A DNA stretch of 64,000 nt from Acidobacteriota bacterium. GTDB lineage: Bacteria > Acidobacteriota > UBA6911. Both the position numbers and the translations under genes were made by a program. The notes under the pieces were generated by a model. The model searched no databases. It was given only the letters and a program-made list of their open reading frames with translations, and was not told the origin of the DNA. The stretch's first letter is position 1. Each line of letters starts with the position of its first letter. The stretch is from the NCBI GenBank assembly GCA_963664705.1, contig OY761556.1:672001-736000 (forward strand). Reading direction: 5' to 3'. Shown one piece after another: positions 26,975 to 58,544 of this stretch.

Positions 26975-27103
26975 ATAAGCACCATGCCGTCTTTCGCTGT
27001 TGAATTGACAGGAGCGTTTATCCATGACTTCAACGCAAACCTGGATGAGGGAATGGAAGGGGGGGAGTATGGATTCAGACGCATATCCTGATTTCCAGAC
27101 GCA

Positions 27104-29080: not shown

Positions 29081-29356
29081 AGGCTGCTCCCTTAAGGAAA
29101 GTGTCTTGGATTTATTCACGGGGGATCTACTGACAGCCGGTGGATGCAGTACCCTATCCGCCGGCAATTTGCTGGTCTGAATAGATCGGGTCGGTGCCTG
29201 GAGCATTCACTGCAATGAAGTGGGTGATATGCAGTTTAAATACTTCGTTGAAAAAATGTAGCCGGCTTCGGGCCAATTCTGAATATACAAAAATACTCAT
29301 TTCCAAGTGAGTAGTCTTACGAGCCTTTGTGCGCGCCACCAATGGCAGTCTGCCTA

Positions 29357-38226: not shown

Positions 38227-38531
38227 TTTTCTATCTCGCCCGGATGGATATGTCCTCGTGCGTAATCATGCTCGATATATTTGCAGCTCGTTGAATTCAA
38301 AGAGGGAGGGTAGTGCTAAGCTAATATCCTTTGTTTAAAAACTTAGGCAATTCCAAATAGAATATATCAAAGCGATATACATCTTGAACTTATGGTGCCA
38401 GTGAAGCCTGGGCGGTTCAAGAGTCATTAGAGGAAAATAATGGCAAGGCAGGGCTGGTATGTTCGCTCGAATGACAGGCCGTTCGGTGTGCGCTGGACCG
38501 GACCGCCTTACGAGAATAGATGTTGCTTTTT

Positions 38532-40757: not shown

Positions 40758-41044
40758 TTTGTCCTCAATTGGAAAAGTGTTTGCGGCGTCTTTTAAAGGA
40801 TCTGTCTTCTTCGAAAGATAGTCGCGAAACAGGCATCACTTGCGGGGAGGCTTGAATGGTAATTTTCCTATCGATCATTACGGGAATGCTCGAAAATATT
40901 GTGGACCGCCCTAAAATCACGTCCACGGGATAAACAACGCTAAAGAACCAACCCTTTCTCAACGAGGCAACAATGACAGATCTGGAAAAGTTCTTCTGTT
41001 CATTATTGAACATCTCTGGCATTTCCGTTATTGGCGGGGAGATT

Positions 41045-41821: not shown

Positions 41822-41872
41822 GCGGGCCTCCATCTGCTCACAACATTGCCGACGTCCGCCATTTGCCATGGA

Positions 41873-42367
41873 TTACTGCAGCGCGATTAGTTCAACGTCA
41901 AATATCAGGGTGGCGTTTCGTGGTATAAGCGGCGGCACTTCGGTCGATCCGTAGGCAAGGTCGGGAGGGATTTTGATCTGTCGCCTTCCTCCTACCTTCA
42001 TTCCTTCGACTCCTTCTTCCCAGCCCGGGATAACTTGACTGGCTCCCAGTGTGAAAACGGGGAGCCGGCCATCGGAATACGAACTGGCAAATTCCCTCCC
42101 GTTTTCTACCCAGGCCTTATACTGGACCATAACCGTATGCCCCCTTCCTGCTGGCATTCCTTCACCTGTCAGGATGTCCCAATAGATTAAACCGGACGCG
42201 GTTTTTACCCCTTCGCCCGTCACTTTGGTCGGTCTTTCAATGTTGATAACGGACTGTTCCTGCGGGTTCAGCTTTCTTCGGAAATATCTCGATGCAGAAT
42301 GCTGCGATTGTGCCGGCAGGTCGGGGGCTGCCAATATCGCCAATACCAGGATCAAAATGCCGCGCAT
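41873..42367 (-). CDS. Secreted FKBP-type peptidyl-prolyl isomerase
   Basis: TASGLIY, VIPGWEEGVEGMKVGGRR, IPPDLAYG, NATLIFDVEL. Confidence 0.95.
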   Translation of the reverse strand: MRGILILVLAILAAPDLPAQSQHSASRYFRRKLNPQEQSVINIERPTKVTGEGVKTASGLIYWDILTGEGMPAGRGHTVMVQYKAWVENGREFASSYSDGRLPVFTLGASQVIPGWEEGVEGMKVGGRRQIKIPPDLAYGSTEVPPLIPRNATLIFDVELIALQ

Positions 42368-42388
42368 CCATCCTCCTTCTGGCAGGCG

Positions 42389-44002
42389 CTATGGGACGAT
42401 CCAATCTCCCTCCGGGATCAGGGTCCTTTCATCGGCGCCGCCGAATCTCACGATATATCCGCCCTTGGATGCAAAACGCTGCCCTGGGCCTAAGCTCAAT
42501 CGTGTGTAGTACCCATCAATCACTCTTGTGCTCAGCATGCCCTCTACATTTTCCACCAGATAATCGCGCAGGAAGTTGTCCAATACCTCATTCAGGCTCT
42601 CGGAGATTATGTTGCAGGCAATATAAGTGTCGACTTGTGTTTCTTCTGCAACGACCGGGATTTGCTGAATCCGAAACCATCCCAATGGATAATCGAGAAG
42701 GGCACCCCGGCGGGATGGTATTTCAAAAGGATAGGCCATATGAGCCACGCTTCGCCAGGAACCGGGAAGCGGAACATCGTCCAGCCCTCCCATTATTGCG
42801 GATAGAAATATGTGTGTTGCTTTCGGCGGTTCAGCCGGAAGCATTTTTAAGTCATCTGGCCGCAGCCACAAAATCAACACATCCCGAGGACGTGCTTTCC
42901 GGAGCGAATGCCTTATGAGCATTTGGCCCGGGGATGAGGGAAGAGGCTGGTCGATTACAGTAATGCCGTGAGCTGCACTCTCGGCATGAAAAGCCTTTGC
43001 GGCAGCGTCGCCCACATCATCTTTTCGGAAGACTTGCACAATGCGACGAGCGTTTTGTGGCGATGGCCCTCGGCTCAACTGCTGTGCAATCAACTGGGCC
43101 TCAAGCAGTACCCCCTTGGAGAAATAGAGATTGTAGAAGTCCTCCTCTGCCACAACCGGCAACTCCACATTGGGGAAGAAGCAGGGGATGGACTCCTGTT
43201 GGCAAAACTGATGAATGGGCTGCCAGTTTGCGCCTCCCATTCCGGAAAGAACCGCAAAAACAGGTTCGGCCTTGAGCTTCGCCCGCAATTGTTCCATCCA
43301 TCCTGTTGCGTCTCCGGACAGCTCCCAGATGTGCAGTTGCCATTTGCGGGGCACACGGTACATCATTTTGGTATATCGCGCTGGGGCTGGTATCGGGCGA
43401 TAGAAGACATTTTTTGCCGCAAAAAAATGCTGCAATACATCCAGCATGCCCTTTCGCTTTACCGGATCCGAATCAGGAGTGATGATGGTTGCGAAGTGCA
43501 GGGTATCCCCGGTAACACCTGGAACACTCCCGCTGGACAGGCTTGCGAGATAGGAAATCAGCGCGCTCATCGTGTCATTGTCAAGCGGATATCTTGGCAT
43601 GACATAGTTGAGCGGACGCCCGTCAGGAGTGATACCTTCACGAATCGCTTTTGCAAGAGTCTCGCCCGTGTAGGGTGGCCTATTAGGCGTTGTCCGCTCG
43701 GTGTGGTCCGTTGCTTCTCGCGCAAAAAGTCCTCCCGAACTGAAGAGATACTTCGCGGTAACAGGAGGGATCAGGGTTCCGCCTTCTACGCTGCCCATTC
43801 CGCTTGGCCGATGGCAGTTAACGCAGGCGGCTGTGGATCCGGAGATCGATCCGCCGCCCGGCCGTTGTGCGGTTACCTCTGCTCCCGAGGCAAGGATTCC
43901 TTTCCGGTACAGCACTTCGCCTTCGGTCAGTGCATTGGTAGCTGCCCATATCCACGCGACAAAGAGCACGATGCACGACACGAATATCAACGGAATGCGC
44001 AT
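42389..44002 (-). CDS. Cytochrome c fused to periplasmic-binding-protein-like domain
   Basis: Signal peptide, CVNCH heme motif, distal MPRY Met, and a C-terminal type-I PBP-like region ending LGPGQRFASKGGYIV. Confidence 0.8.
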   Translation of the reverse strand: MRIPLIFVSCIVLFVAWIWAATNALTEGEVLYRKGILASGAEVTAQRPGGGSISGSTAACVNCHRPSGMGSVEGGTLIPPVTAKYLFSSGGLFAREATDHTERTTPNRPPYTGETLAKAIREGITPDGRPLNYVMPRYPLDNDTMSALISYLASLSSGSVPGVTGDTLHFATIITPDSDPVKRKGMLDVLQHFFAAKNVFYRPIPAPARYTKMMYRVPRKWQLHIWELSGDATGWMEQLRAKLKAEPVFAVLSGMGGANWQPIHQFCQQESIPCFFPNVELPVVAEEDFYNLYFSKGVLLEAQLIAQQLSRGPSPQNARRIVQVFRKDDVGDAAAKAFHAESAAHGITVIDQPLPSSPGQMLIRHSLRKARPRDVLILWLRPDDLKMLPAEPPKATHIFLSAIMGGLDDVPLPGSWRSVAHMAYPFEIPSRRGALLDYPLGWFRIQQIPVVAEETQVDTYIACNIISESLNEVLDNFLRDYLVENVEGMLSTRVIDGYYTRLSLGPGQRFASKGGYIVRFGGADERTLIPEGDWIVP

Positions 44003-44016
44003 GGAGGAAATCCTCG

Positions 44017-44601
44017 TTATCTGGCGGCCGCAACCTCACGGCGGACTTCGCTGAACAGCTGATCGGTGGTGGCAAATCCATCAAAACGAACCCAAGGCTT
44101 GTCTGCCGCAGGGCGCACTAGAATCACCGGCGCATGATTCATTTTGTCGCCGCGATAAACACCGAAAGCACGTGCCGCGGCAATAACCGCCTGTGTGGTC
44201 CCTGTATAGTGATGCCATTCGGATCCTGCATGCAATCTTTTTGCATAGGCTGCCAGGCGTGCAGGCGTGTCCTGTTCCGGGTCGATTGAAATAGAGAGCA
44301 TATGCACGTGATCCCGGTCCTTTCCCAGTCGGTCCTGGAACTTGGCGAGCGTCTGACTGATTATTGGACAGATCGAAGTGCAGGAAGTAAAGATGAAGGT
44401 CATCAAGGTTGGCCGGTCATCCCTGAGTTCATTTTGCAGCGTCACCTTTTCGCCATCATCTCTTACCAGTTCCACCTGGGGAACGACGTATTCCGCCGTT
44501 GAACGTTTTGCCCCCGTTTCATTTCCGCGCGCCATCGGTCCACTAAGGGCTGTGAATACAATAATCATAAGTAATGCTGTGCCGCTGGGACATCGGTTCA
44601 T
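44017..44601 (-). CDS. SCO1/SenC copper chaperone
   Basis: FIFTSCTSICP (CxxxC), SISIDPEQDTP, conserved His in MNH. Confidence 0.92.
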   Translation of the reverse strand: MNRCPSGTALLMIIVFTALSGPMARGNETGAKRSTAEYVVPQVELVRDDGEKVTLQNELRDDRPTLMTFIFTSCTSICPIISQTLAKFQDRLGKDRDHVHMLSISIDPEQDTPARLAAYAKRLHAGSEWHHYTGTTQAVIAAARAFGVYRGDKMNHAPVILVRPAADKPWVRFDGFATTDQLFSEVRREVAAAR

Positions 44602-44614
44602 TCAAGGCCTCCCT

Positions 44615-45385
44615 CTAGTTTGCAGCACGGATGCCGGAATAATCCGGCTTCGCAAAAATGCTGTTTTCCAGATTCGGATTCAGATTAACTGTTTCGATCC
44701 TTATGTTGCGTGCAGGAACTACATTCTCAACCACCGTTTCCAAAACAAAAGGCATCATTAATCCGCCAACGGATCGATAGTCGCGATAGTTGATATAGAC
44801 CCTGTGTGGTTTTCCGTCGAGCATGCGCGGAAAACCCTCTACTCTGACTTCGAGAAATGTTTGGGCATCAATCCAGATATTTCGCACCTGATTATCCCTG
44901 GTTGTAAGCCTCAGCTTGTAGGCCGCGCGTTCTTCTATCGGCTCTACTCCTGCCAGTTCTATTTTGATGCCTTTAGTTTCATGGTCGATCAGGAGGCCAT
45001 CCAGTGCTTCTTGTTCCGTGGCACTTTGCATTTCGGCCTGGGTGAATGGTTCTACCTGCAGCCGATTCAGGAATGGACGTACCTTCCAGCCGTTACTGCC
45101 ATCATAGACCTGTAATGCGGTTTTTCCGGCAAACTCCAGTTCAAGCCTCGACATTCGAGGCCGTTTGAGTTTTAGCGTAAATGGCAGTTGAGCATTTTGT
45201 TTACCTCCGGCGTCCATTTTACCGGTCATGGTCATTGACTTAATTCCGCGCCAAGCTTGCAATCCACCTCGGGCAGCGATGTTCTTTTCCACCACCTGCT
45301 CTGCCGTCATGGTCTCTGCGAGAGCTGCATGGGCCGGTATTTCTATTGCTAAAGAAAGGCAAACCACAAGAAGCAGTTTGTGCAT
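44615..45385 (-). CDS. LolA-like / outer-membrane lipoprotein-sorting family protein
   Basis: Signal peptide, ARGG, KRPRMSR, YDGSNGW, WIDAQTFL, YRDYRSVGGLMMP. Confidence 0.7.
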   Translation of the reverse strand: MHKLLLVVCLSLAIEIPAHAALAETMTAEQVVEKNIAARGGLQAWRGIKSMTMTGKMDAGGKQNAQLPFTLKLKRPRMSRLELEFAGKTALQVYDGSNGWKVRPFLNRLQVEPFTQAEMQSATEQEALDGLLIDHETKGIKIELAGVEPIEERAAYKLRLTTRDNQVRNIWIDAQTFLEVRVEGFPRMLDGKPHRVYINYRDYRSVGGLMMPFVLETVVENVVPARNIRIETVNLNPNLENSIFAKPDYSGIRAAN

Positions 45386-45482
45386 CTTGAATCACCTCCA
45401 AATGATCCTAAGCATTCACGATGTAAACAATCGATCACGAAAGCATCATCGCTAACAGTCTAGCCGGCGACAATACGGGAGG

Positions 45483-45500
45483 ATGTTCACTATTGAACAT
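45483..45500. promoter_or_regulatory. Palindromic operator-like site ATGTTCA-CTAT-TGAACAT
   Basis: Perfect 7-4-7 inverted repeat upstream of the LolA-like gene. The same core occurs at 58816-58833. Confidence 0.7.
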
Positions 45501-45522
45501 AATTCAATAAGCATAGGCATTT

Positions 45523-46053
45523 CTATTGCACCTCCAAACCCTCTGCCCTAAATAGGCCAATAGCCAGGGCAACTCGATCTCCTCGTTTTACCAGCCTTCC
45601 CTTATTGGAGAAAGCCATCCAGTAGAATTTCCCGGCCTCCGGATGATTGGTCTGGCGCAACTGCCCGATTTTATCCATGGATGGAACCACCAGTTGGACT
45701 CCAGCCCGCGGATCGATCAAAATCGGCTGATTGGTTTTTTCATTAAGCGGGGCGGCCTTGTCCGCGTCCAGGATACGATAGCTGAATCGAATGAGTTCGC
45801 CGGCTTCAGCCGTCCTGATTTGAAGAGAATCAATGCCCCAGACTCTGCTGTAATAAAGCTCCGCCCGTTTGGGAAATTGGGCGGAGCGATAGTGGCGGGC
45901 GTTTTTTGACGCGGCCGGCTGCAGGGCTGAGACCACGGATTGAGCTTTACAGGGTGAAATGAGCAGACCGCTGATTACCATTCCGAGAATCATTATTTTT
46001 GTATCATGTGTGAAGCGACGCTGGAACATGACAGGGTCTTCTCCTTTAGCCAA
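45523..46053 (-). CDS. Hypothetical secreted protein of the copper-oxidase cluster
   Basis: Signal-like segment and FSYRILDADKA...VPSMDKIGQLRQ...YWMAFSN. Co-oriented inside the cluster. Confidence 0.65.
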   Translation of the reverse strand: MAKGEDPVMFQRRFTHDTKIMILGMVISGLLISPCKAQSVVSALQPAASKNARHYRSAQFPKRAELYYSRVWGIDSLQIRTAEAGELIRFSYRILDADKAAPLNEKTNQPILIDPRAGVQLVVPSMDKIGQLRQTNHPEAGKFYWMAFSNKGRLVKRGDRVALAIGLFRAEGLEVQ

Positions 46054-46079
46054 AGTTGAGGGCAGGCTTCCTGGCTAAT

Positions 46080-46117
46080 GCATAGAAGGAGCATCCATCC
46101 GGATGCCCCTTCTATGC
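46080..46117. terminator. Hairpin just after the giant gene
   Basis: GCATAGAAGG-A-GCATCC-ATCC-GGATGC-C-CCTTCTATGC. Confidence 0.6.
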
Positions 46118-46125
46118 GACCTCAC

Positions 46126-49100
46126 CTAAGGTGTGATTGTGAAACTCACATTGCCGCCGGATCCGCCGGGCGTGGTAACGCTTACGTTCCGCGTTGCATT
46201 GGATCCATTGATGTTGGCATTGGTTGCAATGGTGAACGTTGTTGTGATCGTGGTGCCATTGGCTGAAACCGCTAATGCTCCAACCGTTACGCCACTGCCG
46301 GATACATTCACCGCAGTGGCTCCCGTCAGGTTGGTGCCAGTCAATGTAACGTTGAATGCTACACCATTCCTTGCATGTGTAGCCGGACTGATGGCGCTTA
46401 ACGCCGGCGCTGGAGGAGCCGTCACCGTGAAATTCAAAGTGTTGCTGGTTCCTCCGGGAGTGGTGATGCTGACGGTCCTTGTGCCCTGGCCTCCATTGTT
46501 TCCTATGGGAATCACAAAGGTGGCGGTGGCCGTTGTGGCGTTGACAACGACAAGGTTGGTGACAGTGATTGCATTTGGCCCGCTACCTGAAACAGTCACC
46601 GATGTTGCTCCCGTCAGGTTCGTTCCAGTCAGGGTTACCGGAACACTGCTGCCTCGAGTGCCTGACGCAGGACTGATGCTTGTCAGGGTTGGGGCGGTAT
46701 TGCCTCCGCCACCAGCAGCCGAGCCCTGGATTTCGATGGCTCCGGCATCGGTGGTGTGTGGGTTTGCGCCTGGATCCGGCCTTGGATTGCCAAAAAAGTC
46801 GGTCCTTGGGGCTGTGATGGTCGGGCCATTGCCATCGGGAATTACCTGGCAGCCAACAGCTGCCGCATTTGCATTGGAGCACTCCACGAAATCAATGGCC
46901 GATGAACCCGATTGCAGCGAGTAATTGCCCAGCACTGCGTTGGTCACGGGGTTTACAAGAGACAGGGGGCCCCAACTCATGTTGATCCAGTTGTTGCCCT
47001 CATCCACGGTTGCGGCAGGAGTCAGGCTGAAAATTGGATTGGGCACCGTTGCATCGGAAATGCCCGGCGGGACCTGATAGCCCAGGCCACCGTTTTCCGG
47101 GGGAACTCTTGCCCCATTGCAATATTGCCTGATCACCGACGGATTACTATTTGCGTTGTGGCCATTGTAGCCTGCGATGCTCGTCAGCAGTGACCACTGT
47201 GCGTTCAGAGTGAATCCTGAACTGTGATTGGCGGGTCCGGTGTCGCCACGCACGCCGATATCCCAATAGTTTGACCCATTCACGCATTGGCCGGTTGCCG
47301 TTTGGCTTGCCGGTGCCGTTCCGGTTAACCCGTTGAGCAACGCGACCACGTTCTGCTGGTTGAGTGCCCCCGTTCCCAAACCTCCCACGTGAATGTCAAA
47401 CGTCCGGTTCTGCCAGAAAATATTGTCGTACAGAAGCGGATAGGAGATTTTGGTGCAGGTCCCATTCGTGGCCGTTCCGGAGTAATGACCTGCCGGGCAT
47501 GTAATGGGGCCGATACCGGCGAAGGAGGATACCAGCTGGGGGCTGTTTTGCAGCGATACCAGCCCCGCAGGTTGAGGACAGGAACCTGTGCCGTTAGCCT
47601 GCCCGGGGCAGTTGGCCGGTGGTGACTGCGAGCTTGCGAGTGGAGCTCCCAGTGTGTTGAAGAGAACACCTGCGGATGCGGTGCTGTCATTGGACATGAT
47701 CGTATTGTTCACGATGTTTACTGCCAACGAGTCTTCGAGCGAAATACCGCCGCCATCCCAGCCGGCCACATTATTGGCCAGAATATTGTTGGTGACAGCG
47801 ACAGAGTACCAGCTGGCGGGAGCACCCGGGAACCGGGCAACCTCGGTGCCATTGACCGCCTGGAAACGCAGTCCACCGCCGCTGCCGCTCTCCGCGCCAT
47901 TTCCCATGATGAGGTTTGCATTGATTACCAGACCTGGGCCGGCGCCATCGCCCAATCCCGGTACGCAATCGACGTCGGTCACAGTGCCGCATTCTGTGGC
48001 GACTCCATTGACGATCTGCGTGCCGTCAGGTGGAGCACCCATGACGATAATACCGCCGCCATTGGTCGGTATCGTCGGGTTGATACTTTGATTGAACAGG
48101 AACGTGTTGTGTTCAATGTCTCCGTTGTAGATAAAGCCGAGGTGTCCTAAGCCTCCGCCATCGCCAGTGCTCAGGTTGCCGCATACCCAGTTGTTGTTGA
48201 ACCGGTAGTAATCGGCTCCCGTGGTGAAACTTGCGCCACCCGCTCCGGCCGGTGTGGCCGTAAACAATTCATCACCAGTGGAGGAATTGTTAAAGATGGA
48301 ATTGTTGTGCACATTCGTGTGCAGGAAGAAGCAATAGGGTAATTGAGTGTTTGTGACCGTGCTGTCCTGGCAGGAACCGGGAGCGATGACTCCGCTGTTG
48401 GGTGCCAGGTAGGCATCCGTAAATTCGCCCTGCCCGATGCTTATCCCGCCGGATAGAGTGCCGGCATTGTTGTTGACCTGGTTGTTGGCGATCTGGAGGT
48501 TGTGTGCCCAGCCGTGCACCAGGATGCCGCCTCCGCCCTGGGAGCTGTTTGTGATTCCCAGCCCATCAATACTCGATGGATTGCATTGGAAGTTGCTGGG
48601 ATATGGATTGGACCCTCCTGAACTGCTCTTACAAATGGGATTGGTGTCACCCGACAGGAATATTCCTGAAGCTGTTCCCTGTCCGGAAAGCAGCGTGCTG
48701 CCGGCGGGAAAGTCTGCTTCCGCGCCGCTGCCGAAAACATCTGCGGCACCCTGTGGAATATTCACTCCCTTGGACAGGACCGTGATGGCTGCTCCTTCGT
48801 AAGCTCCCATCAGCGAGGGCTCCTGCAGCATTTCGGCCAGGTTGCCATTGAGCGTTGTATCCCATCCGACAATACCCTCTCTTGGAAGACGGTCGACCGC
48901 CATGAACGGGAAGCTGGGGCCTCCGGAGAAATAGCTCCAGGTGTTACCGTTTGGCCCAGGCTGTGAGTTTCCTGTGCCGTCCGGGCATCCGAAAGCGCCT
49001 GTGGAGTCAAAGGGGTTGGCATTGGTGCGTGGTTGGCCATTGAGCGCCAGGCCAAACAAGCAATTCACGCTGCGCCGCCATGGATCCAGCTTAGTAATTC

Positions 49101-52100
49101 CAGCCGGGTGGGTGTTGGCATTAATGATGCTGGATGCAGCGCCAACTCCCTGCAGCCGGACCGGTTTCCACATAAGCAGCAGTTCATTGTAAGTGCCGGG
49201 CGGAACGACAATGAGGTCGCCGGGAGCGGCCGCATCGAGATACGGTTGAATTGTTGACCCTGGGGCCACGGCAGTGGGCGCCTTGCCGCCAATGGTGACT
49301 GTAACCGCATCGACAGACTGCTGTCCCTTTGGGAAAGCTGTGGAAGGAGCCGTTGTAATAACCAGTTCTCCGCACTGAGCTGAAGAGCCTCCGTACTGAG
49401 CCTGTTGTTGCACATCACATAACGGCACGTTACTGGGAACATTAAGCACAATGGTTGTGTCGTTCCAGGTTGTGATCTGGTTGGATGGTACGTTGACACC
49501 TCCGATGCTGACCGTTCCTTGCGTTGTCCCGAAGCCGTAGTGACGACTGACTGTTTTTTGATTGAAGGGAGTCGTGTGTGCGGCGGGACCGGAGTAGCCG
49601 TAGTTGTTGACTATCTGATCGCCCAGTGCCGTGATTGTAATGCTATGACCGGCGGCGCTTACCCAGGGTCCCGTCCGGGCAGGGAAGCTTCCCTCCGTCG
49701 ATGTGTTGACAACCGAACTGATCGCGGGAGTGGATGCAGGAAATGCACAATCGGGGTTGTTGTATCCGGCGCCGACAAAGCCCGAGGTTGGCACTACGGG
49801 CGTGTCCATATACTGCGTTTGTCCCGGCATGAATGGGATTTCATAACAGAACTGACTATATCCCGGATTAAACAACGGATCCGTTATGGTCTGTCCCGGA
49901 TGCGCCGGATCAGCAATGGGTCCGGCATCGTTCATGCACGTTACCATCATGGTTGGCGCATAACCAGTCGGGTTGGGTGGATTTACTTCCCAGGTCGAGT
50001 AGGTAATGCCGTCATAGGATCCCCACTGATCGGAGTAGGTGCGGGAAATTTCATTGTAGTTGAAATCTCTGATGGAAACGGGAAGGTTCGCCGGCGAGAA
50101 TTTTTCGCCGAACGACGGGGAGAAGGGATCAAATTCCGAAGTGAAATCATCCGTGATGATCCCGGTAAAATGTGCGGCGGCATGGGTCGAGGTGAAAATA
50201 TAGAATTTCGCCAATGCGGAAGCTTGATCTGTGAGCGTCACCTCTTTGCGATCGCACAGGTTTCGTGTCGCACCCGCGAATGGAGCAACTTCCCTGGATT
50301 GCGGGAAAAGGCTGATGTAATCCGGAACGACGCGAGGCTCGCCTACACATGGCCAGAAGCTCTCAACACTGCCTGTATCCCCCTCATGTCTGGGGAAAGC
50401 GCCCAAATCCGTTGTCGGGTTCTGGGCATTGCTGGCATTGTACGATGCCGCCACTGCCGCCTGATCGGGTAGGATAAAAATGTTGGCCAGCGGGCCAAAC
50501 TGTTGTGTGACTGGCGCGATGTAGTTGTCGCCGATGAGTATGTTTTTGTCTTCTTCTTTCACCAGTTCGTATCCCGGAGGTACTACAATTTCCACAACAT
50601 ATTTGCCTGCCGGCAGCATGGGAAGTCCATGCCGATATGGATCCGTTGTGTCCGGATCGGGTATGCATACGGTCGGGTCGCAGTTTGTTCCGGTGGGTCT
50701 TCCCGTGTTGGGATCGAGACCGGTTACACTGGGGAATTGATACATCCCATCGTAGGGCGCAGGTTGCACCTGGTTCCAGTTGTGCATGCCGTCATAGCAT
50801 TTGAACTGAGAGTTGTTGGGCATGGCGTGAGCCGGAATACCGCTGTTGCCATACATGTCGAGCCACATTGGCTGGTTGTACAGCGAGAAGAAGAAGAGAT
50901 CGCCCGCGGAACCTGATGTTGGTGCCGGTTGCTGTCCCGGGCAGTTCATATAGGGCTTATTGGTCCCCGGGTAAAATCCCTGGGCCCAATCATCCCAACT
51001 GCTGGTTTTTGTGGTGTCAATCAGCTTGAGGCTTTTGCTCCCATCCGGCGCAGTCCCTTCCTGATACAAATTGATGGTGACTCCCGGGACGAGCGGTTCC
51101 CAACTGGTCTGCAATAGCAATTGCGGATCGTCAAAGGGACGGGTAGAGGCATACACTACGTGGCCCCTGATGCCGCCATTTTCTCCTACGGCATAGGGCT
51201 TTTTGCCGAATTCGATGAAACTGTTCTGGCCGGAAAAGCCCTGCCACCCTTCGCTTGTAACCCAGGGAGGGTCAATTCTCCCGGTAGATAACGTGCGGGT
51301 ACAGGTCGTTACCCCGGTTGTGGCATTGGTGGTACAGGTGCTGGGAGCGTCGCTGGCATTGCTGCCGTTTACCCCGCTGATCGACTTGCCAATGCAATCC
51401 GCGCCTGCGCAATACACGGCACCGGGCACTCTCAGCGCTGTCGGCAGGGATACCTGCTCCACAGTGTTGGCCATTTTCTGGCCGATGGAGGAATTGCCGC
51501 AGGGTGCAGTGGGTGGGTTTGAGGCCGAACCGCATGGAGTCCCATCGGCCGGTCCGCCCGCATCGTAAACCACATGGGTTCCGGTGTTCTTATAGCGGGT
51601 TGCATCTGTTTCAATGACATACCAGCTGAATAGCGGGAACACTTCATTGAAGCCGGCATTCCCATCCAAATCCGTGTTGTTGAAGTTTGAAAAACTCCCA
51701 TCCCGGAACCGGATGTTGGTGGGAACCAAAGTAAGTCCGTTTTCGTTACTGTCGCGCAATCCATTGCCGTTGGAATCAATAAAGGTATTGGTGTAAATAT
51801 TCGCTTGCCACTGATTGGTGGCTATCTGTCCCAGGTTGCCGGAATTTGCGACGGTGTGATCAAGTTTGACTGGTGTCGACAGGCCGTCCACAAGCATGTC
51901 ATTCCATTGATCAAAAACTGTGACTCTCCAATTGCCATCCGGAAGACCCGGAATGTTGAAGGATCCGTCTCCTGCGCATTTGGCAAACGCAAAGTCTTCG
52001 CCATCCGGATCTCCGATGCTCACATAACATTGTGTGAAGGCAAAACTGCTGTTGTCTCCGCTGCTGTAAAGCCGCTCATCGGGTGTTCGGCTCATGCGTT

Positions 52101-55100
52101 CGGTGGTGATACTGCCACTCAATGTGTTGGTGCAGCTTGTGCCGGTGATTGTCGGGTCAGTCCCCGCACACACCCCCTTCAATCGCCCATTGATGATGGT
52201 TGGATTGGCAAAGCCTATCGATACGTGGTATCCGGCCGGTCCGTATTCTTGAAAGTAGGCCGGCTCTCCGATGCGAAGGAAAGAATCGTGAGCCTTCTGT
52301 CCATCCAGCGTGTTGGTTTGCATCCATTCTTCACCGCGCGCGATCCTGTCCGCCCCTGGAGTGGCAACCACTCCATATCTTCCGGGCATAAGATTTGCAA
52401 TGACTGCTTGCCCGGCCAAAGGCGATAGCGTTGTCCCGTCAGATTCGTATCGCGGACATGTGACAATCATGCCCGTAATGCCTTTTTGACTTCCGTTGCC
52501 GCCGGTTGCGTTGGCGGTGACTTTGGTGGAAATGGGACAGGCATCTTTTCCGGTTGCCGGGTCGATTGTTCCAGCAAGACTGTTCGACAACGGCATATTG
52601 AACATGTCATAGGTCATTTGCCCCGTGGCATCACCGGTGCCTCCGGCATCGTCAAAGAGAACAATGTTGAATCCACCCAGCCCCGGTTCGTTACTGGCAA
52701 GAACATCAATGCCGCCTCCGGCATCCTGCTCGCCGTTGAGCGGGAAATCGTCTTCAAATACCTGGACCGACAACTTGGCGGGCTGAAAAGGAGTGGGATT
52801 TGTAAGCACCGTAACGCTCGTTTGCCCCGCAGCAATAGGAGCGCCGCCCATGGCATGCCCACTCTGGGCATTTCCGGTGTTAAATGGATTGGCGGCGTCT
52901 CCCGGCAATATTGAAATGTAGTAGCGCTTGGTTGGATCGAGATGAACTTGACTGGGGTTGACCGGGGACTGTTGCGCCGCACCGGTTCGACAACTTCCGT
53001 TGCCGACGTCGCACACTGCCGGTAACCCCTGAAGCGTCTGTCCCGATTCGCATGCTATGGTGCCAATGCATCCCTGTGCGACTACCGGCATGTAGCTCGT
53101 GTGAAAGTTGGTTCCAAGCGTAGGAACAATTCCGGTCACGCCCTGTCCCGGGATACTTGCAGTCGGGCAGCCGGCGGGCGGCGGATTTACCTGGCATTTG
53201 GGATCGACATAGAAGGTGCGATCCTCTTCAATGATCCAGCGATAATCCGTCACGGGAGTGCTTTTGTTGGCACCGTCCAAAACGGTCACATTGAGACCGC
53301 TTGCCGTCGGGAATATTAGTGTCACGGTTGCGGCCACAGAGCTCACGGTTCCCTGCGAGTTTTGTGCAAAGTAGGAGAACGTATAGCTTCCAGAAGCGCT
53401 GACGGCAGCGGTGAAGCCGCCGTTGGAATCCACTGTAATCGTTCCCGAACCAGGACCGGAAAGGGTTGTTACACCTGCAGAATTGTACACTTTGAGCGGA
53501 TATCCCGCGGCGTCTTTATCCGCCGACAGGATCCCCGGAGGATTGATGCGGATGCCGGAGGCCAGATTGGAGGTGTAGGTGGCGTTCTGCATCAGGATGC
53601 CCGCGGCACTTTCAATAGGCGCCGGGCCTAATGTAACCGTTGTGCAGAGACCGCCCGCCGTTGCCCCGTTTGCGCAATATCCAAAAGCATCCGATGTCGC
53701 GGTTCCGGAGGGTATGTAAGTAAATGTGCCATTCTTGTTGAGGGTTACAGTGCCGCTGGCTGCCGGAGTCGATATCTGAACTCCATAGACATTGATATCG
53801 TTGGCGATCACGCCTCTGGAAGGATCCGACACTGTGAAGGTTTGCCCCGCAATCAGGGAATTGTAGGTGTCTGGTGTGACCGTAGCGGCAAACGTGTTTG
53901 GCAGCGTTGAACCGGGGATTCCGGTTGTCGAGCCTCCTCCGGCATTGGTAGTGCCGGCCAGATTTCCATTGATGCTTATATAGGCCAGCATCCCGCCGTC
54001 GCGTGCGGTAGAGTTGCCGGATAGACTCAGTTGGCGATCAAACACCGGGAGTGCCCGCATGGTGCACGTTGTCCCCGGAGTCGCAGGAGTGCATGTGGCT
54101 GGGCCGTCTATCATCACATCAAATGTTTTGCCTGCAGCCATGAAAACATCGCTTTGCACTCGGCCTGATCCAGGCAGGGTATTGCCGTCTTCGGCCATCA
54201 GTGTGAAGCCCGGACTTGATCCGGTGGAAGCCCCTACGATGGAGGGAACATGCATGCGCAATCCCGCATTGACCATGCGCACCAGGACACTGCCTGCGGC
54301 GCCTGTAACAGGCAGACTGGCAAAATTGGAAATAGCGGGATTGTTCTTATCAAAGGCCACTCCGTTGATCAGGTAATACAAAGGAGTATAGTTCACGGCT
54401 GGCGGATAGCACTGGTGATAAGTCGAGGAACTGGGATTGCCGCATCCCCCCGGTTGACCTGACCAGACCATGGTTTCGCTGAAGTTGGCCGTGTTCACCG
54501 CGGCATTCACAGCTGCATTTTGTACAGGATCGATTTCACTAAAGAGCAGCGGTATTTCCTGGTTGTACACAACCGCCGGATTACTGCCGGAGGCAGGATA
54601 GGCTGTGCCGGGGTTTGATCCGGCCGGTGCCGAAGTGACCACAACCATTCCATATAATCCCATGGGTCCCTGAATGGATGGGTGGGTGCCGGACTCGAGA
54701 AGGTACGTGCCCGGCCGCAAACTGCTCCATGTCAATGCGGTTGTCTGACCTGTCGCCACTTCGGTTGAGAAAGATTGAATGCGAGGGCTTTGTGCTGGCG
54801 GTGATGCTGAGACACCGGTGTTTGCAATCGGCCATGTGGCATTTGCCTGAGCATTCGTATGGCTTGGGCTGGGCGTGTAGGTCGCAGCGCTTCCCAAGCC
54901 CGCTCCGATCTGCCCCACAATTACCAGCGAGGTCGGAATACCCGCCAGGGCTCCCGGTGGAACAGGCAGGCTATTTGTCAAATTAACGGTCAGGCCTTGT
55001 CCGGTTGGAACGGTAATAACAACGGGAGACCAGTTCGTAGTTCCCTGGTTCAGTTTTGCGCATGTTGCCGTTGATCCGGTTACGGCGGGTCCGCAGCTAT

Positions 55101-55263
55101 ATCCCCACATGGGTACGGCTGAACCATCGGGCAAGGTAATGCTCGTGGTTGTGGCCGTCATGTTCACCTGTTGTTGTGCTTCTGCCGCAAGTGTTCCAAT
55201 GAACAGGAAAACAGCAGCCAGTGTCGCAATGCTCCAGTTTGTCCTTAATGCTCTCGATCCCAT
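46126..55263 (-). CDS. 3045-aa secreted multidomain protein: two degenerate cupredoxin domains, Ig/cadherin-like and SdrD-B-like modules, beta-helix, choice-of-anchor-Q-like segment, two IPT/TIG-like repeats
   Basis: Signal peptide. Cupredoxin landmarks (PMWGY, VNLTNSL, GPMGLYG, YYLINGV, VRMVNAG, DGGMLAYI) lack the His/Cys ligands. Also DSNGNGLRDSNE, Asn/Gly-rich NN...GGGI helix repeats, DFFGNPRP...DAGAIE and two PxLxxISPA...VTLTGTNLTGAT repeats. Confidence 0.85.
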   Translation of the reverse strand: MGSRALRTNWSIATLAAVFLFIGTLAAEAQQQVNMTATTTSITLPDGSAVPMWGYSCGPAVTGSTATCAKLNQGTTNWSPVVITVPTGQGLTVNLTNSLPVPPGALAGIPTSLVIVGQIGAGLGSAATYTPSPSHTNAQANATWPIANTGVSASPPAQSPRIQSFSTEVATGQTTALTWSSLRPGTYLLESGTHPSIQGPMGLYGMVVVTSAPAGSNPGTAYPASGSNPAVVYNQEIPLLFSEIDPVQNAAVNAAVNTANFSETMVWSGQPGGCGNPSSSTYHQCYPPAVNYTPLYYLINGVAFDKNNPAISNFASLPVTGAAGSVLVRMVNAGLRMHVPSIVGASTGSSPGFTLMAEDGNTLPGSGRVQSDVFMAAGKTFDVMIDGPATCTPATPGTTCTMRALPVFDRQLSLSGNSTARDGGMLAYISINGNLAGTTNAGGGSTTGIPGSTLPNTFAATVTPDTYNSLIAGQTFTVSDPSRGVIANDINVYGVQISTPAASGTVTLNKNGTFTYIPSGTATSDAFGYCANGATAGGLCTTVTLGPAPIESAAGILMQNATYTSNLASGIRINPPGILSADKDAAGYPLKVYNSAGVTTLSGPGSGTITVDSNGGFTAAVSASGSYTFSYFAQNSQGTVSSVAATVTLIFPTASGLNVTVLDGANKSTPVTDYRWIIEEDRTFYVDPKCQVNPPPAGCPTASIPGQGVTGIVPTLGTNFHTSYMPVVAQGCIGTIACESGQTLQGLPAVCDVGNGSCRTGAAQQSPVNPSQVHLDPTKRYYISILPGDAANPFNTGNAQSGHAMGGAPIAAGQTSVTVLTNPTPFQPAKLSVQVFEDDFPLNGEQDAGGGIDVLASNEPGLGGFNIVLFDDAGGTGDATGQMTYDMFNMPLSNSLAGTIDPATGKDACPISTKVTANATGGNGSQKGITGMIVTCPRYESDGTTLSPLAGQAVIANLMPGRYGVVATPGADRIARGEEWMQTNTLDGQKAHDSFLRIGEPAYFQEYGPAGYHVSIGFANPTIINGRLKGVCAGTDPTITGTSCTNTLSGSITTERMSRTPDERLYSSGDNSSFAFTQCYVSIGDPDGEDFAFAKCAGDGSFNIPGLPDGNWRVTVFDQWNDMLVDGLSTPVKLDHTVANSGNLGQIATNQWQANIYTNTFIDSNGNGLRDSNENGLTLVPTNIRFRDGSFSNFNNTDLDGNAGFNEVFPLFSWYVIETDATRYKNTGTHVVYDAGGPADGTPCGSASNPPTAPCGNSSIGQKMANTVEQVSLPTALRVPGAVYCAGADCIGKSISGVNGSNASDAPSTCTTNATTGVTTCTRTLSTGRIDPPWVTSEGWQGFSGQNSFIEFGKKPYAVGENGGIRGHVVYASTRPFDDPQLLLQTSWEPLVPGVTINLYQEGTAPDGSKSLKLIDTTKTSSWDDWAQGFYPGTNKPYMNCPGQQPAPTSGSAGDLFFFSLYNQPMWLDMYGNSGIPAHAMPNNSQFKCYDGMHNWNQVQPAPYDGMYQFPSVTGLDPNTGRPTGTNCDPTVCIPDPDTTDPYRHGLPMLPAGKYVVEIVVPPGYELVKEEDKNILIGDNYIAPVTQQFGPLANIFILPDQAAVAASYNASNAQNPTTDLGAFPRHEGDTGSVESFWPCVGEPRVVPDYISLFPQSREVAPFAGATRNLCDRKEVTLTDQASALAKFYIFTSTHAAAHFTGIITDDFTSEFDPFSPSFGEKFSPANLPVSIRDFNYNEISRTYSDQWGSYDGITYSTWEVNPPNPTGYAPTMMVTCMNDAGPIADPAHPGQTITDPLFNPGYSQFCYEIPFMPGQTQYMDTPVVPTSGFVGAGYNNPDCAFPASTPAISSVVNTSTEGSFPARTGPWVSAAGHSITITALGDQIVNNYGYSGPAAHTTPFNQKTVSRHYGFGTTQGTVSIGGVNVPSNQITTWNDTTIVLNVPSNVPLCDVQQQAQYGGSSAQCGELVITTAPSTAFPKGQQSVDAVTVTIGGKAPTAVAPGSTIQPYLDAAAPGDLIVVPPGTYNELLLMWKPVRLQGVGAASSIINANTHPAGITKLDPWRRSVNCLFGLALNGQPRTNANPFDSTGAFGCPDGTGNSQPGPNGNTWSYFSGGPSFPFMAVDRLPREGIVGWDTTLNGNLAEMLQEPSLMGAYEGAAITVLSKGVNIPQGAADVFGSGAEADFPAGSTLLSGQGTASGIFLSGDTNPICKSSSGGSNPYPSNFQCNPSSIDGLGITNSSQGGGGILVHGWAHNLQIANNQVNNNAGTLSGGISIGQGEFTDAYLAPNSGVIAPGSCQDSTVTNTQLPYCFFLHTNVHNNSIFNNSSTGDELFTATPAGAGGASFTTGADYYRFNNNWVCGNLSTGDGGGLGHLGFIYNGDIEHNTFLFNQSINPTIPTNGGGIIVMGAPPDGTQIVNGVATECGTVTDVDCVPGLGDGAGPGLVINANLIMGNGAESGSGGGLRFQAVNGTEVARFPGAPASWYSVAVTNNILANNVAGWDGGGISLEDSLAVNIVNNTIMSNDSTASAGVLFNTLGAPLASSQSPPANCPGQANGTGSCPQPAGLVSLQNSPQLVSSFAGIGPITCPAGHYSGTATNGTCTKISYPLLYDNIFWQNRTFDIHVGGLGTGALNQQNVVALLNGLTGTAPASQTATGQCVNGSNYWDIGVRGDTGPANHSSGFTLNAQWSLLTSIAGYNGHNANSNPSVIRQYCNGARVPPENGGLGYQVPPGISDATVPNPIFSLTPAATVDEGNNWINMSWGPLSLVNPVTNAVLGNYSLQSGSSAIDFVECSNANAAAVGCQVIPDGNGPTITAPRTDFFGNPRPDPGANPHTTDAGAIEIQGSAAGGGGNTAPTLTSISPASGTRGSSVPVTLTGTNLTGATSVTVSGSGPNAITVTNLVVVNATTATATFVIPIGNNGGQGTRTVSITTPGGTSNTLNFTVTAPPAPALSAISPATHARNGVAFNVTLTGTNLTGATAVNVSGSGVTVGALAVSANGTTITTTFTIATNANINGSNATRNVSVTTPGGSGGNVSFTITP

Positions 55264-55276
55264 TCGCTCTTCTCCT

Positions 55277-56935
55277 TCAATTTGTCTCGTCTATGACAAA
55301 TTCCCGGGAGTCAACCAGCATCATCATCAACATGCCGCCAGGGAAAATGTTGTTGGTCGTGATTTCGCGTTCGTTATGTGAGTGCCACATAAATGCGAAT
55401 CCAGCTTCTGAGGAGGGATTGTTGGCAATGGTTCCGGATGGGGGCGTTGTTCCTGTTGTAGCGCAGTTGTTTCCGGCGCAGGTTCCGTAAGTCGCGCGGG
55501 TGGTTGCGTCCGGACCCAGATAGGGACTGCCGCCGAACCAGGGCCCATTGGTTAACAGATTCGGATCAGGCAGGGTCATAGGTCCGCCTGCGCCCACATC
55601 ACCGAAAGGAGCCTTCTCCATTGGCTTGTTGTGGTCCTGGCACCATTCGTAGTAATTGATCGCCGTCGGATTCCCGGTGTTATATCCATTTGCATCAGGC
55701 GTGCAGGGAAGCTTGGCATTAGGATCGCTGGAGCCCGGCGTATGGCCGTACATATCCCAGTTCAATCCCTTTCCCGTGTAGTAGAAGATTCCATCCATTG
55801 CCTGACCGGGAGTAGTCGTTGTGGTAAACAATAACGGCCCTGCGAGAGCTTGAGTCGCGGCGCTTGAGCCGGCATAAGTGATTGTGGAGCTACTGAGGAG
55901 TAGATTGCCATCGCGTGCAAGAATGCGCACATGGTTGCCATGTTCATGGAAGGGATGCTGCCATCGTCCCTGCCCTACAATCCGAAGCAGAACCAACTCT
56001 CCAGGGTGCATATGTGGATCCCCGTTGTAGGGCTGATGGGGATATTGGATCGCATAATTAGCATCCATGTCGTCGGGCATCGAACGTCCGTTGATCATGA
56101 AATATGCAGGGTGATATGGTTCTGTTGCGATGTTGAGGCTGCATCCCGTGGCACCGGCCACGCAAGCGCCCAGTGCTGTTACCTGTGCCAAGGCTTGACT
56201 GTGAATGTCAGGATCGATCTCCGAGAATTGGAATAGGTATTCCCTGTCATAGCAAGTGTCGGGATGGTTGTAGGCGGCCTTGGTCAATCGAAAATCCTTT
56301 TCCCCCCAAAACGCTTCTGCCTGGAGATTTTTGGCAGCCAGTGTTCCGGTTGCGGTGCAGTTTTGCGGAATGGAATTTGGGAGCACAATGATCGCGCCGT
56401 ACAGGCCCATCTCAATCTGAAGGTCGCCCTGGGTTCCGCTGTAATAGGAGCGAGTCCCCGGCGTGGTGGCAGTGAATGTATAGGTGACGGTTCCACCCGG
56501 CGCGGCCTCCTGCGTCAGAAGTCCGGCCACGCCGCCGCTGGTGGATACCGCAAAACCCGGGAACAGGATCGATGTGTTTCCGGCCGAACTCGGCAGATTG
56601 TTGTGCAAGGTAATCGATACTGACTGCCCTTGATTGACAATCAGAGTGGGGCCCGGGACTTGCATGGCGCCGCAAAACGGATTGTTGGCCAGGTTCGCGG
56701 GGAGATAACCGGACGGCGTACTGTTGCAGCCATAGCCCCATGAATAAACGGACTGACCATCCGGCTGGCTGATATAGGCGTCCTGGGCCGTCAAATCGAA
56801 AGTACCTGCCGCGCTGGTTCCGGTTATGCCGGGGACTGCCGAATACGCTGGTGGCGTGAGGAGCAGGGCGGCTGTCAGGATGGTCAAAGCCAGTATCCAG
56901 GGGTATTCTTTTTTTATTCGCATCACTTTCATCAC
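55277..56935 (-). CDS. Two-cupredoxin-domain multicopper-oxidase-like protein with Cu ligands only in domain 2
   Basis: Domain 1 is degenerate (TSILFPG, YYSGTQ...MGLYG). Domain 2 has HPFHEH and WHSH with no T1 Cys. Confidence 0.85.
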   Translation of the reverse strand: MMKVMRIKKEYPWILALTILTAALLLTPPAYSAVPGITGTSAAGTFDLTAQDAYISQPDGQSVYSWGYGCNSTPSGYLPANLANNPFCGAMQVPGPTLIVNQGQSVSITLHNNLPSSAGNTSILFPGFAVSTSGGVAGLLTQEAAPGGTVTYTFTATTPGTRSYYSGTQGDLQIEMGLYGAIIVLPNSIPQNCTATGTLAAKNLQAEAFWGEKDFRLTKAAYNHPDTCYDREYLFQFSEIDPDIHSQALAQVTALGACVAGATGCSLNIATEPYHPAYFMINGRSMPDDMDANYAIQYPHQPYNGDPHMHPGELVLLRIVGQGRWQHPFHEHGNHVRILARDGNLLLSSSTITYAGSSAATQALAGPLLFTTTTTPGQAMDGIFYYTGKGLNWDMYGHTPGSSDPNAKLPCTPDANGYNTGNPTAINYYEWCQDHNKPMEKAPFGDVGAGGPMTLPDPNLLTNGPWFGGSPYLGPDATTRATYGTCAGNNCATTGTTPPSGTIANNPSSEAGFAFMWHSHNEREITTNNIFPGGMLMMMLVDSREFVIDETN

Positions 56936-56942
56936 CGCTCTC

Positions 56943-58544
56943 CTAATTGATGTGGATCTCGGTCATCAGACCGCCGAAATTCTCCGCGTCGTTAGACAGG
57001 TGATCGAGGTTTGGGGTGTAAAGAAAGAAAACGCTGCCCGGGGGATACATCGTTGTGTCGGTTGCATCCAGGATTGCGTCAAGGGACTCTCCGCCGCCAA
57101 GCGTGATGGAATTGGTTTTATAGGACATGTTGTTCCCAGCCTGATCCCTCAGCAGCTTGGCGTTGTATCCAATGACAGTCATTGGGATCCCCAGGGAAGC
57201 CAGCGTCTGATACTCGCTGACGTCGAGATCGGAGATCCGCAGCAGAGCCTTTTTTCCTGCAGGAATGTTGATAATGGATGGGAGTGGTTGTGAATAATGC
57301 ATCGCTCCATCCGAGGAAACGGTTGCCAACGGTCCAGCCGTTACCGTGTCAGGATAGCTCCGCCCGTTCAGAAGAAAGTATTTGTCCTTCATATCGGCGA
57401 ACCCTTCAGGGTTAAAGGTCATTCCAACGAAGTGAAAATTGGGATCAAATCCGTGGATCTGGATCGGGTATTCCACATCATAGTAGGTAGAACCATCGCC
57501 ATCGTTATAGGCGTATTTCCCTCCTCCGGTCGCGCTTGTCTGCGCCGCAGGCAATGGATTGCTGCACAGAATATCTTCTGTGGAATCGCATTTTGTGCGA
57601 TTGTCCAGTTGCTGTTGCTGCAGGCCGGCAAACAGAGTGGTGGTGCTTGGGACGCGATTCTGCCGTGGCCTTACGAAGAGCTGGCCGACCATGCCCATCT
57701 GCAGGTGCTCCGGGGGCGTGATGTGGCAGTGCCAGAAATAGGTGCCGGCATCCGGCGCCAGGTAGTAATACGTGAAGCTGGCACCGATATTGATTGCAAC
57801 GGAAGCATCGGGAACACCGTCGTAGAAGGCGGAGGCATTGGGATAGCCGTGAAAGTGGACTGTATGCTGCTCGAATAGATCGGGCCGCATGATCATCCCT
57901 ACATTAGTGAGAGTCAGAAAGAACTCGTCATCTTCATCGATTGCCATGAGTGGCGCCGGTATATTTCCGTTCATCACCCCCACATCCATAATCGGACGCG
58001 GATCCACATGCCCATTGATAGTAGGGTTGCCTGCAGTATCGATGTTTTCAGAGTAGGTATCCGGGGTTAAGCCGACCGCGCCATTGTAGGTAAATGCTCC
58101 CAGCGTGCCGGGTGAGGCTCCGCTTGAGGCTCCGTTTGTTGTGGCAGGGTCACCGGGTTGCAGCGATCCAGGCGATACCGTGTTGAACGTACTGGGAAAC
58201 TGGGTGCCAGGTAGTCCGTTGGCAATATCTGCAAGCCCTGACAAAGGTCCAAAAGAGAACATGTATGTCTGGGTGCCGTCTCCCATCGTGGCGTATCCGT
58301 CACCGCCGGAAATCTGCTGACACTTAATTGCGCCATTGATATTTGCGGGAGTTGATGGATATCCATTGGTACCGGCATAGGTCGGGCCGGTGTATGCCGG
58401 TTCCGCATTGTTTGCAGCTGCATTGGGATGGGTGATGGTGGTACTGGGGCATTGCACCCTAAATGACTGGGCACTCACTACCCCGGACAGAAGAAACAAC
58501 AAAGCCAGGGATAGACCAAGTCGATGCTGCCTATTCGGGATCAC
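56943..58544 (-). CDS. Two-cupredoxin-domain multicopper-oxidase-like protein with Cu ligands only in domain 1
   Basis: Domain 1 has HTVHFHG and YFWHCHITPPEHLQMGM (complete T1 site). Domain 2 is degenerate (YQTLASLG, LYTPNLDHL...GGLM). Confidence 0.88.
   Translation of the reverse strand: MIPNRQHRLGLSLALLFLLSGVVSAQSFRVQCPSTTITHPNAAANNAEPAYTGPTYAGTNGYPSTPANINGAIKCQQISGGDGYATMGDGTQTYMFSFGPLSGLADIANGLPGTQFPSTFNTVSPGSLQPGDPATTNGASSGASPGTLGAFTYNGAVGLTPDTYSENIDTAGNPTINGHVDPRPIMDVGVMNGNIPAPLMAIDEDDEFFLTLTNVGMIMRPDLFEQHTVHFHGYPNASAFYDGVPDASVAINIGASFTYYYLAPDAGTYFWHCHITPPEHLQMGMVGQLFVRPRQNRVPSTTTLFAGLQQQQLDNRTKCDSTEDILCSNPLPAAQTSATGGGKYAYNDGDGSTYYDVEYPIQIHGFDPNFHFVGMTFNPEGFADMKDKYFLLNGRSYPDTVTAGPLATVSSDGAMHYSQPLPSIINIPAGKKALLRISDLDVSEYQTLASLGIPMTVIGYNAKLLRDQAGNNMSYKTNSITLGGGESLDAILDATDTTMYPPGSVFFLYTPNLDHLSNDAENFGGLMTEIHIN

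Follow-up and report, generated by a model that had tools for sequence, protein, structure and literature searches.

How can two adjacent genes that each encode only half of a multicopper oxidase (MCO) active site, followed by a third gene that encodes none of it, specify a working enzyme? This question is raised by three tandem genes, A, B, and C, in a 64,000-nt stretch (the window) of contig OY761556.1 from the Acidobacteriota bacterium assembly GCA_963664705.1. An initial annotation of this DNA had proposed that their products form a heterotrimer with a single catalytic center. Here, we present an analysis of the copper ligands, conservation, gene order, and relatives of the three proteins. 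As judged from these sequences, the locus is an example of a widespread and conserved split of one MCO active site across two paralogs, accompanied by a third, ligand-less paralog. The three genes are on the minus strand of the window; the central features are as follows.

56943-58544, minus strand: subunit A, a two-domain cupredoxin protein of 533 amino acids (aa); ortholog of Slit_1818 and Rmet_4702.
57690-57866, minus strand: codons for the A copper ligands H227, H230, H232, H272, C273, H274, H280, and M285, each present in 167/167 aligned A sequences.
55277-56935, minus strand: subunit B, 552 aa; ortholog of Slit_1817 and Rmet_4701.
55940-55957, minus strand: B domain-2 motif H327-x2-H330-x-H332.
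55376-55384, minus strand: B domain-2 motif H518-S-H520.
46126-55263, minus strand: full open reading frame (ORF) of C, 3045 aa.
53959-55263, minus strand: subunit C proper, a signal peptide plus a ligand-less cupredoxin pair (approximately residues 30-435); ortholog of Slit_1816 and Rmet_4700.

The ORFs, the gaps of 7 bp from the stop codon of A to the GTG start of B and 13 bp from B to C, and the placement of the copper motifs are all as initially annotated, and AG-rich stretches resembling ribosome-binding sites lie upstream of the starts. Consistent with the Sec-type signals assigned to the three proteins, A, B, and C have hydrophobic N termini with no RR pair within the first 35 residues, the signal peptides being judged by eye. 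In A, the type 1 (T1) copper site (H227, C273, H280, and M285) and four His of the trinuclear cluster (H230, H232, H272, and H274) are all in domain 1, in the motifs H227-x2-H230-x-H232 and H272-C273-H274-x5-H280-x4-M285; domain 2 has no cluster His, and A contains no further HxH. In B, the four cluster His (H330, H332, H518, and H520) are all in domain 2, there is no T1 Cys, and the ligands of domain 1 are lost, with Ser in the Cys slot and Gln in the His slot; B also has an HMH at residues 308-310 outside the motifs. C contains no HxH across its 3045 aa. Beyond the copper motifs, near-invariant polar residues in A (R220, D222, E279, D367, and H371) and in B (H327, S519, E522, and E524) are candidates for a substrate site or an extra metal site.

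In two-domain MCOs, the trinuclear cluster draws four His from domain 1 of one chain and four from domain 2 of the next. Because the cluster forms in this way, only a contact between domain 1 of A and domain 2 of B (A1:B2) can supply eight His. The location of this cluster at the interface of two chains has been described for two-domain MCOs (PMC11761707). The three proteins belong to this fold: Pfam and PDB matches together with profile alignments place two cupredoxin domains in each chain, as in the type-C two-domain MCOs, and the top PDB sequence match for A, and for the B and C profiles, is the two-domain MCO 3G5W, domain 1 of which bears the same T1 motif as A. Residues 33-369 of C are homologous to B (blastp E value of 1e-9), and the family profiles align across both domains (hhalign E values of 6e-52 for B-C, 2e-30 for A-B, and 1e-21 for A-C). 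By these alignments, B and A have a full paralog in the first 435 residues of C.

Candidate relatives of A are numerous, with at least 7802 A-like clusters among the 7999 candidates scored. For a survey of complementary ligand loss at homologous loci, as suggested in the initial annotation, we retrieved 80 genome loci (70-82% identity), 80 metagenome loci (46-74%), and extra genome and chromid regions. With duplicate loci and fragments of <230 aa excluded, the alignments comprised 167 A, 147 B, and 121 C rows, and ligand slots were counted only over rows without gaps at the four slots. Domain 1 of A has all four cluster His in 167/167 rows; at the 80 metagenome loci, some circularity enters this result, as the scan patterns contained the His of A, and to that extent the case for the split is weakened. 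The genome scan used no A His motifs, and B and C rows were never motif-selected. Domain 2 of B has all four cluster His in 134/135 rows. The opposite halves are empty: no His occupies the slots of A domain 2 in 160/162 rows (one His in the other 2), and B domain 1 has no His in 107, one in 32, and two in 1 of 140 rows. For C, domain 1 has no His at the slots in 102 of 121 rows and one in 19, and domain 2 has none in 114/114. The T1 site (His, Cys, His, and Met) is present in domain 1 of A only (167/167), Ser and Gln occupying the slots in B and C. None of the A, B, or C rows carries both ligand halves on one chain, and HxHG in domain 2 was found in 0/64 examinable A relatives of a motif-blind HMMER set with 150 members listed. 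Thus, the split is fixed in the loci surveyed, and the tally of four His from A plus four from B on which the initial annotation relied is conserved. B and C are conserved at 40-75% identity and are intact rather than decaying; C even has conserved residues where ligand slots used to be. Altogether, these observations argue that A and B very likely complement each other's half sites.

The genes also stay together. In order counts from 160 loci of two scans, restricted to loci with room to judge, B came next after A in 143/144 loci and C next after B in 119/120 by automated count. Inspection resolved both exceptions (at L132, the start of B runs into unrelated sequence; at L158, the start of C is at the contig end), giving 144/144 and 120/120. 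Frequent lone homologues, named in the initial annotation as a sign against a shared site, did not emerge, there being no lone A at any locus with room to judge. In the reverse direction, a search with the B profile gave strong matches in 13/301 genomes of the window's phylum, and 8/8 loci taken from 7 of these 13 genomes hold A-B-C. The spread is patchy, with carriers in 2/18 genomes of the window's genus and 3/351 in a second phylum sample. Cupriavidus, Paraburkholderia, and Ralstonia contribute 12 plasmid or chromid records with the system. Several genomes have the whole operon in two or three copies, some of them in tandem (L004/L065/L070, L037/L061, and L197/L198). At one locus (L133:2870-5257, plus strand), a PAP2/vanadium haloperoxidase-like domain precedes A in a single fused chain. 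Divergent A-, B-, and C-like proteins (P0242, P0244, P0273, and P0274) have twin-arginine-like N-terminal stretches, which suggests that they represent a branch of the system exported by the twin-arginine translocation pathway.

The third gene needs separate consideration since its product in the window is a cupredoxin pair followed by immunoglobulin (Ig)-like repeats and a 2200-residue region, here called module X. The parts downstream of the cupredoxin pair are as follows.

53314-53958, minus strand: Ig-like linker repeats of C; the Big_9 match at residues 571-648 is under the cut-off.
49714-53313, minus strand, approximate boundaries: module X part 1, a predicted compact cluster of prealbumin/SdrD-B-like beta-sandwiches.
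46714-49713, minus strand, approximate boundaries: module X part 2, a predicted IPT-like domain plus right-handed beta-helix.
46126-46695, minus strand: C-terminal TIG/choice-of-anchor-Z-like repeats of C, with no visible membrane anchor.

At close loci, X follows the cupredoxin pair of C in 72/73 cases. The more divergent loci have X ahead of A, either free or fused to the N terminus of A, in 42 of the 47 cases with room to judge; there, the C gene is short (296-375 aa) or encodes the pair with Ig repeats only. We conclude that the giant region is a separate module that is found free, as X-A, or as C-X, and that A:B:C plus X describes the complex better. It is the ligand-less pair that keeps its place directly after B (120/120 loci), and not the giant region. 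Because the pair accompanies A and B whatever X does, C is independently supported as a genuine third member, and fusion of X to two different subunits would be expected if all four share one complex. C had also been described as a giant surface protein; its sequence has no recognizable anchor or C-terminal membrane segment. For a homolog of X (L114), the predicted structure of part 1 is a cluster of prealbumin-like sandwiches (pLDDT 83, pTM 0.87) with weak partial matches to pilin and MSCRAMM chains (TM-score on the query of ≤0.13 among the matches listed), and that of part 2 is an IPT-like domain plus a beta-helix (pLDDT 88, pTM 0.91) with weak matches to polysaccharide-active beta-helices. 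Structure comparison gave no close solved structure for either model. Among 153 conserved columns of X (39 rows), only one near-invariant His and one Cys are present, so that X resembles a binding or scaffold part.

Orthologs of the operon have been reported. In Sideroxydans lithotrophicus ES-1, three tandem MCO genes were noted together with mofC-like and SCO genes, no function being drawn in the accessible part of the paper (He et al. 2017, PMC5566968). Later, Slit_1812-1818 were found to be raised in late magnetite cultures, and a role in the oxidation of solid Fe(II) was suggested (Keffer et al. 2025, PMC12016527). In the comparison of fresh magnetite with Fe(II)-citrate, the log-scale differences are 7.7 for C, 5.5 for B, 3.5 for A, 5.5 for D176 (a small exported protein encoded after C), and 4.2 for the cytochrome (PMC12016527 supplement). 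Based on protein sizes and the tryptic peptides of this supplement, matched by eye, Slit_1812-1818 are the orthologs of the window operon; the matched peptides cover A, B, C, D176, a LolA-like protein, and the cytochrome. The gene order is the same, with A (515 aa), B (520 aa), and C (2873 aa) followed by the genes for D176, the LolA-like protein, SCO, and cytochrome c. Two of the proteins are called typical MCOs and the third motif-less in the ES-1 papers, the accessible parts of which mention neither half sites, a complex, the shuffling of X, nor an unsplit relative. In Cupriavidus metallidurans CH34, Rmet_4702-4695 are not induced by copper (log2 changes of −0.53, −0.42, and +0.16, false discovery rate of ∼1; PMC7563307 supplement), and we reject a role in copper resistance on this basis. 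Rmet_4700 appears in the accessible part of PMC13192273 solely as a mutation site. Searches of the literature covered, outside which most subscription journals lie, gave no description of the ligand split. Therefore, the initial view that the architecture is undescribed holds for the half sites and not for the gene cluster, which is published but uncharacterized; as far as the literature was searched, the split architecture is a new form of type-C two-domain MCO.

Taking ligands, gene order, and paralogy together, A, B, and C would probably form an obligate ring with one catalytic center, descended from a type-C two-domain oxidase. The contacts in this ring would be A1:B2, B1:C2, and C1:A2; C would serve as a spacer that completes the circle. 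Coevolution on 71 paired loci (effective number of 35) gave a 1.0- to 1.3-fold enrichment for A1:B2, a 1.0- to 1.45-fold enrichment for A2:C1, and a depletion for B1:C2; pairs not predicted to touch scored equally high, and in the intrachain control, 38 of the top 100 pairs were local compared with 2.6 expected. Several points weigh against the ring. Operon linkage by itself is no proof of binding. No true natural A-B, B-C, or A-B-C fusion was present among 4 longer matches, in a search that is weak for long proteins; P0271, a candidate B-C fusion, was rejected because its reading frame switches midway. Finally, in ES-1, A is less abundant than its partners: total intensity-based absolute quantification values, read by column position, are ∼1.4e7 for A and 1.7e8 for each of B and C, and the highest abundance percentiles in Table 1 of the ES-1 study are 29.5 for A, 74.8 for B, and 79.3 for C. 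An A that is ∼12-fold scarcer does not fit a strict 1:1:1 ratio unless it is under-detected. Detection was thin, with 7 peptides and 15% coverage for A and a B value from 1-2 peptides per sample, and the shortfall may reflect either detection bias or a true departure from 1:1:1.

The ligand logic requires just A and B, and C in the window is mostly a giant adhesin-like protein with putative binding to the other subunits. A and B alone could thus be the active oxidase, as an A2B or AB2 ring or as a dimer, with C as a co-secreted scaffold or carrier that docks from outside. We consider this unlikely because the ligand-less pair directly follows B in all 120 loci, even as a gene of 296-375 aa without the giant part, and because this pair is paralogous to B over its full length and has conserved residues at the former ligand slots. 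The ES-1 abundances, in which B and C are similar and each ∼12 times A, together with the sister relationship of B and C (SH-aLRT support of 98; see below), could instead point to an abundant non-catalytic assembly of B, C, and X, in which A joins a minority of rings and an oxidase site forms only occasionally. However, label-free quantification based on this small a number of peptides cannot be relied on, and the translational fusion of A and X in many relatives fixes A:X at 1:1 there; we regard such an assembly as very improbable. We take the obligate A:B:C ring to be the likely reading.

The operon continues downstream of C with the following genes.

45523-46053, minus strand: D176, a small exported protein with no Pfam family; ortholog of Slit_1815 and Rmet_4699.
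44615-45385, minus strand: LolA-like exported protein, similar to Slit_1814.
44017-44601, minus strand: SCO1/SenC copper chaperone, CxxxC present in the sequence.
42389-44002, minus strand: MofC-like protein in which a monoheme cytochrome c is joined to a periplasmic-binding-type domain; ortholog of Slit_1812 and Rmet_4696.
41873-42367, minus strand: FKBP-type peptidyl-prolyl isomerase, MofB-like.
41045-41869, minus strand: 274-aa exported protein with no family, 3 bp past the FKBP gene.

The gene for the 274-aa protein, which does not recur as a neighbor at other loci, is probably the last of the operon; directly past it (38532-40757, minus strand) is a gene for a 741-aa exported protein with three fibronectin-III-like repeats, also not a recurring neighbor. 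A scan of window positions 38000-46200 for promoters and terminators gave results at chance level. Among 165 distinct loci, the neighbors include D176 (32), an S8 peptidase (17), a secretin (15), the cytochrome (14), SCO (12), GspG (12), and GspF (9); at most close loci, the 10-kb flank stops inside C, so that downstream genes are out of view in these counts. D176 comes after C in most complete loci. The same 12 plasmid or chromid records that carry the system also carry the cytochrome. SCO, the MofC-like cytochrome c, and FKBP are all in the window operon, matching the published mofA/ompB cassette, in which SCO and an FKBP isomerase accompany a protein that combines cytochrome c and a periplasmic-binding domain (PMC8218464; PMC5566968); the likeness to MofB and MofC is by cassette description and not by comparison of their sequences. 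The same cytochrome family is found beside ordinary single-chain MCOs in 2 of the loci retrieved (L181 and L193) and thus marks MCO maturation in general. On a 9-kb contig without an oxidase (L192:5463-8082, plus strand), an FKBP gene and a MofC-like cytochrome gene lie past a PilY1-like pilus gene.

Elsewhere in the window, an ordinary CotA-like MCO of 700 aa (27104-29206, minus strand) has a twin-arginine-type N terminus and all four motifs on a single chain, and A is therefore not the only T1 protein of this genome. Beside it is a CusB-like protein with a heavy-metal-binding domain (25673-27025). A 347-aa ORF (22299-23342, minus strand) with no Pfam match at 1e-5 adjoins the lowest-GC stretch of the window; by eye, its N terminus resembles that of a Y1 (REP-associated) transposase.

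Type II secretion genes adjoin some of the loci, and the genome of the window has GspD/G/F-like genes elsewhere. We infer that the chains would be exported by Sec, loaded with copper by SCO, and then exported by type II secretion along with X, which would tether the enzyme to a surface or matrix. The T1 site of A would take up the electrons, and O2 would be reduced to water at the A/B cluster; the ring would probably oxidize an extracellular substrate. Given the ring, mineral-bound or chelated Fe(II)/Mn(II) is the leading guess for this substrate and a plausible one, if short of probable. Because an oxidase that gives its electrons to O2 would not on its own sustain respiration, a role in energy conservation would require the cytochrome to draw on the T1 site. 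The full picture of a widespread, secreted, obligate A:B:C heterotrimer on X, with mineral-bound Fe(II) or Mn(II) as its substrate and some of the electrons going to the MofC-like cytochrome, is put forward tentatively and is rather doubtful as a whole. Against this function, the accessory cassette also serves single-chain MCOs, so that it identifies no substrate; the magnetite induction is a correlation only, seen in late cultures; and the carriers, for the most part soil Acidobacteria, Burkholderiaceae, and sediment organisms, are mostly not known as iron oxidizers.

The co-encoded heme protein could also mean that no O2 is reduced and that the system is an electron-transfer or copper-handling device, in which electrons pass between the T1 site of A and the MofC-like cytochrome while the His sets do no more than bind copper. 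Geobacter OmpB, which has been linked to Fe(III) reduction, shares this accessory cassette (PMC5566968), and many carriers are from sediment metagenomes by their record names. Yet the system retains exactly the eight cluster His plus the His-Cys-His bridge, for which a simple carrier would have no need, and the CH34 genes are not copper-induced; we regard such a device as highly improbable. That A is a homotrimer resembling copper nitrite reductases, with B and C as decayed copies, can practically be dismissed: many weak sequence matches to these reductases exist, but TIGR02376 scores 35-43 bits against a cut-off of 296, domain 2 of A lacks the His slots, and neither B nor C shows decay, both remaining intact at 40-75% identity.

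How the A:B:C system arose may be illuminated by an unsplit relative. The search with the B profile also recovered, in two genomes (L195 and L196), a chain that bears all four motifs and precedes a D176 homolog, past which come a TonB-receptor-like gene and Cus-like genes (chain locus in the first genome, L195:7542-8930, plus strand). No B, C, or X was detected near the unsplit chain in these two loci. The family has 496 proteins at E ≤ 1e-30, clostridial ones included, and all four motifs are present in 114 of the 120 members listed. In a tree of 70 rows made by a quick method, with 8 other two-domain MCOs as outgroups and the solved type-C sequences not among the rows, A, B, C, and the unsplit family each form one group, and B and C are sisters (SH-aLRT 98). 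Without the ligand columns, the four groups are jointly set apart from the 8 other two-domain MCOs (SH-aLRT 95), and a clade of A, B, and C is not rejected on the whole alignment (p-AU of 0.68); domain-1 trees place the unsplit family with A (95). B and C share the domain-1 substitutions of Ser for Cys and Gln for the T1 His, which fits a loss of the T1 site before B and C separated. The simplest reading is that the gene of a self-sufficient trimer would have duplicated twice, with the ligands then divided among the copies.

This reading matters because such genes are annotated in their thousands as separate multicopper oxidases (there are at least 7802 A-like clusters), although going by the ligands, A and B each need the other to function. 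Slit_1817 or Slit_1818 expressed singly would show nothing and mislead, and the half-site reading opens a direct test of the magnetite-induced copper proteins in Sideroxydans ES-1. It also offers a natural case in which paralogs have divided up the active site of a homotrimeric enzyme, and the unsplit sister family allows a comparison. If the full picture including mineral oxidation is true, three genes of living organisms would represent the transition between two-domain trimers and six-domain oxidases, and solid minerals would have a new route of oxidation.

Among the sequences tested, the unsplit family (L195, L196, and P0275-P0394) is the closest relative of A, B, and C and shares the adjoining D176; unlike A, B, and C, it has all four motifs on a single chain, and the name manganese oxidase that some of its database records bear is annotation only. 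The type-C two-domain MCOs (3G5W, 2ZWN, 3GDC, and Nmar_1354, 9CCK) have two cupredoxin domains with the T1 site in domain 1, as does A; however, they carry all ligands on one chain and form single-gene trimers with three centers, whereas here one ligand set is spread over three genes. We rejected the Nmar_1354 "heterotrimer" as a precedent because its chains differ only by a missing pendant domain. MofA and OmpB (Leptothrix mofABC and Geobacter ompB) resemble the present system in their accessory cassette and differ from it in being single large chains with four motifs. Ceruloplasmin and Bacillus MnxG are six-domain rings with one trinuclear cluster on a single chain, and the partners of MnxG, MnxE/F, make a separate hexameric cap. 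The T1 sites of ceruloplasmin lie in even domains; here, the one T1 site is in an odd domain, and the ceruloplasmin-like ring of the initial annotation consequently stands as a likeness in topology only. By ligand tally, A, B, and C would be compatible with one trinuclear cluster in a predicted six-domain ring, which would be assembled from the products of three genes.

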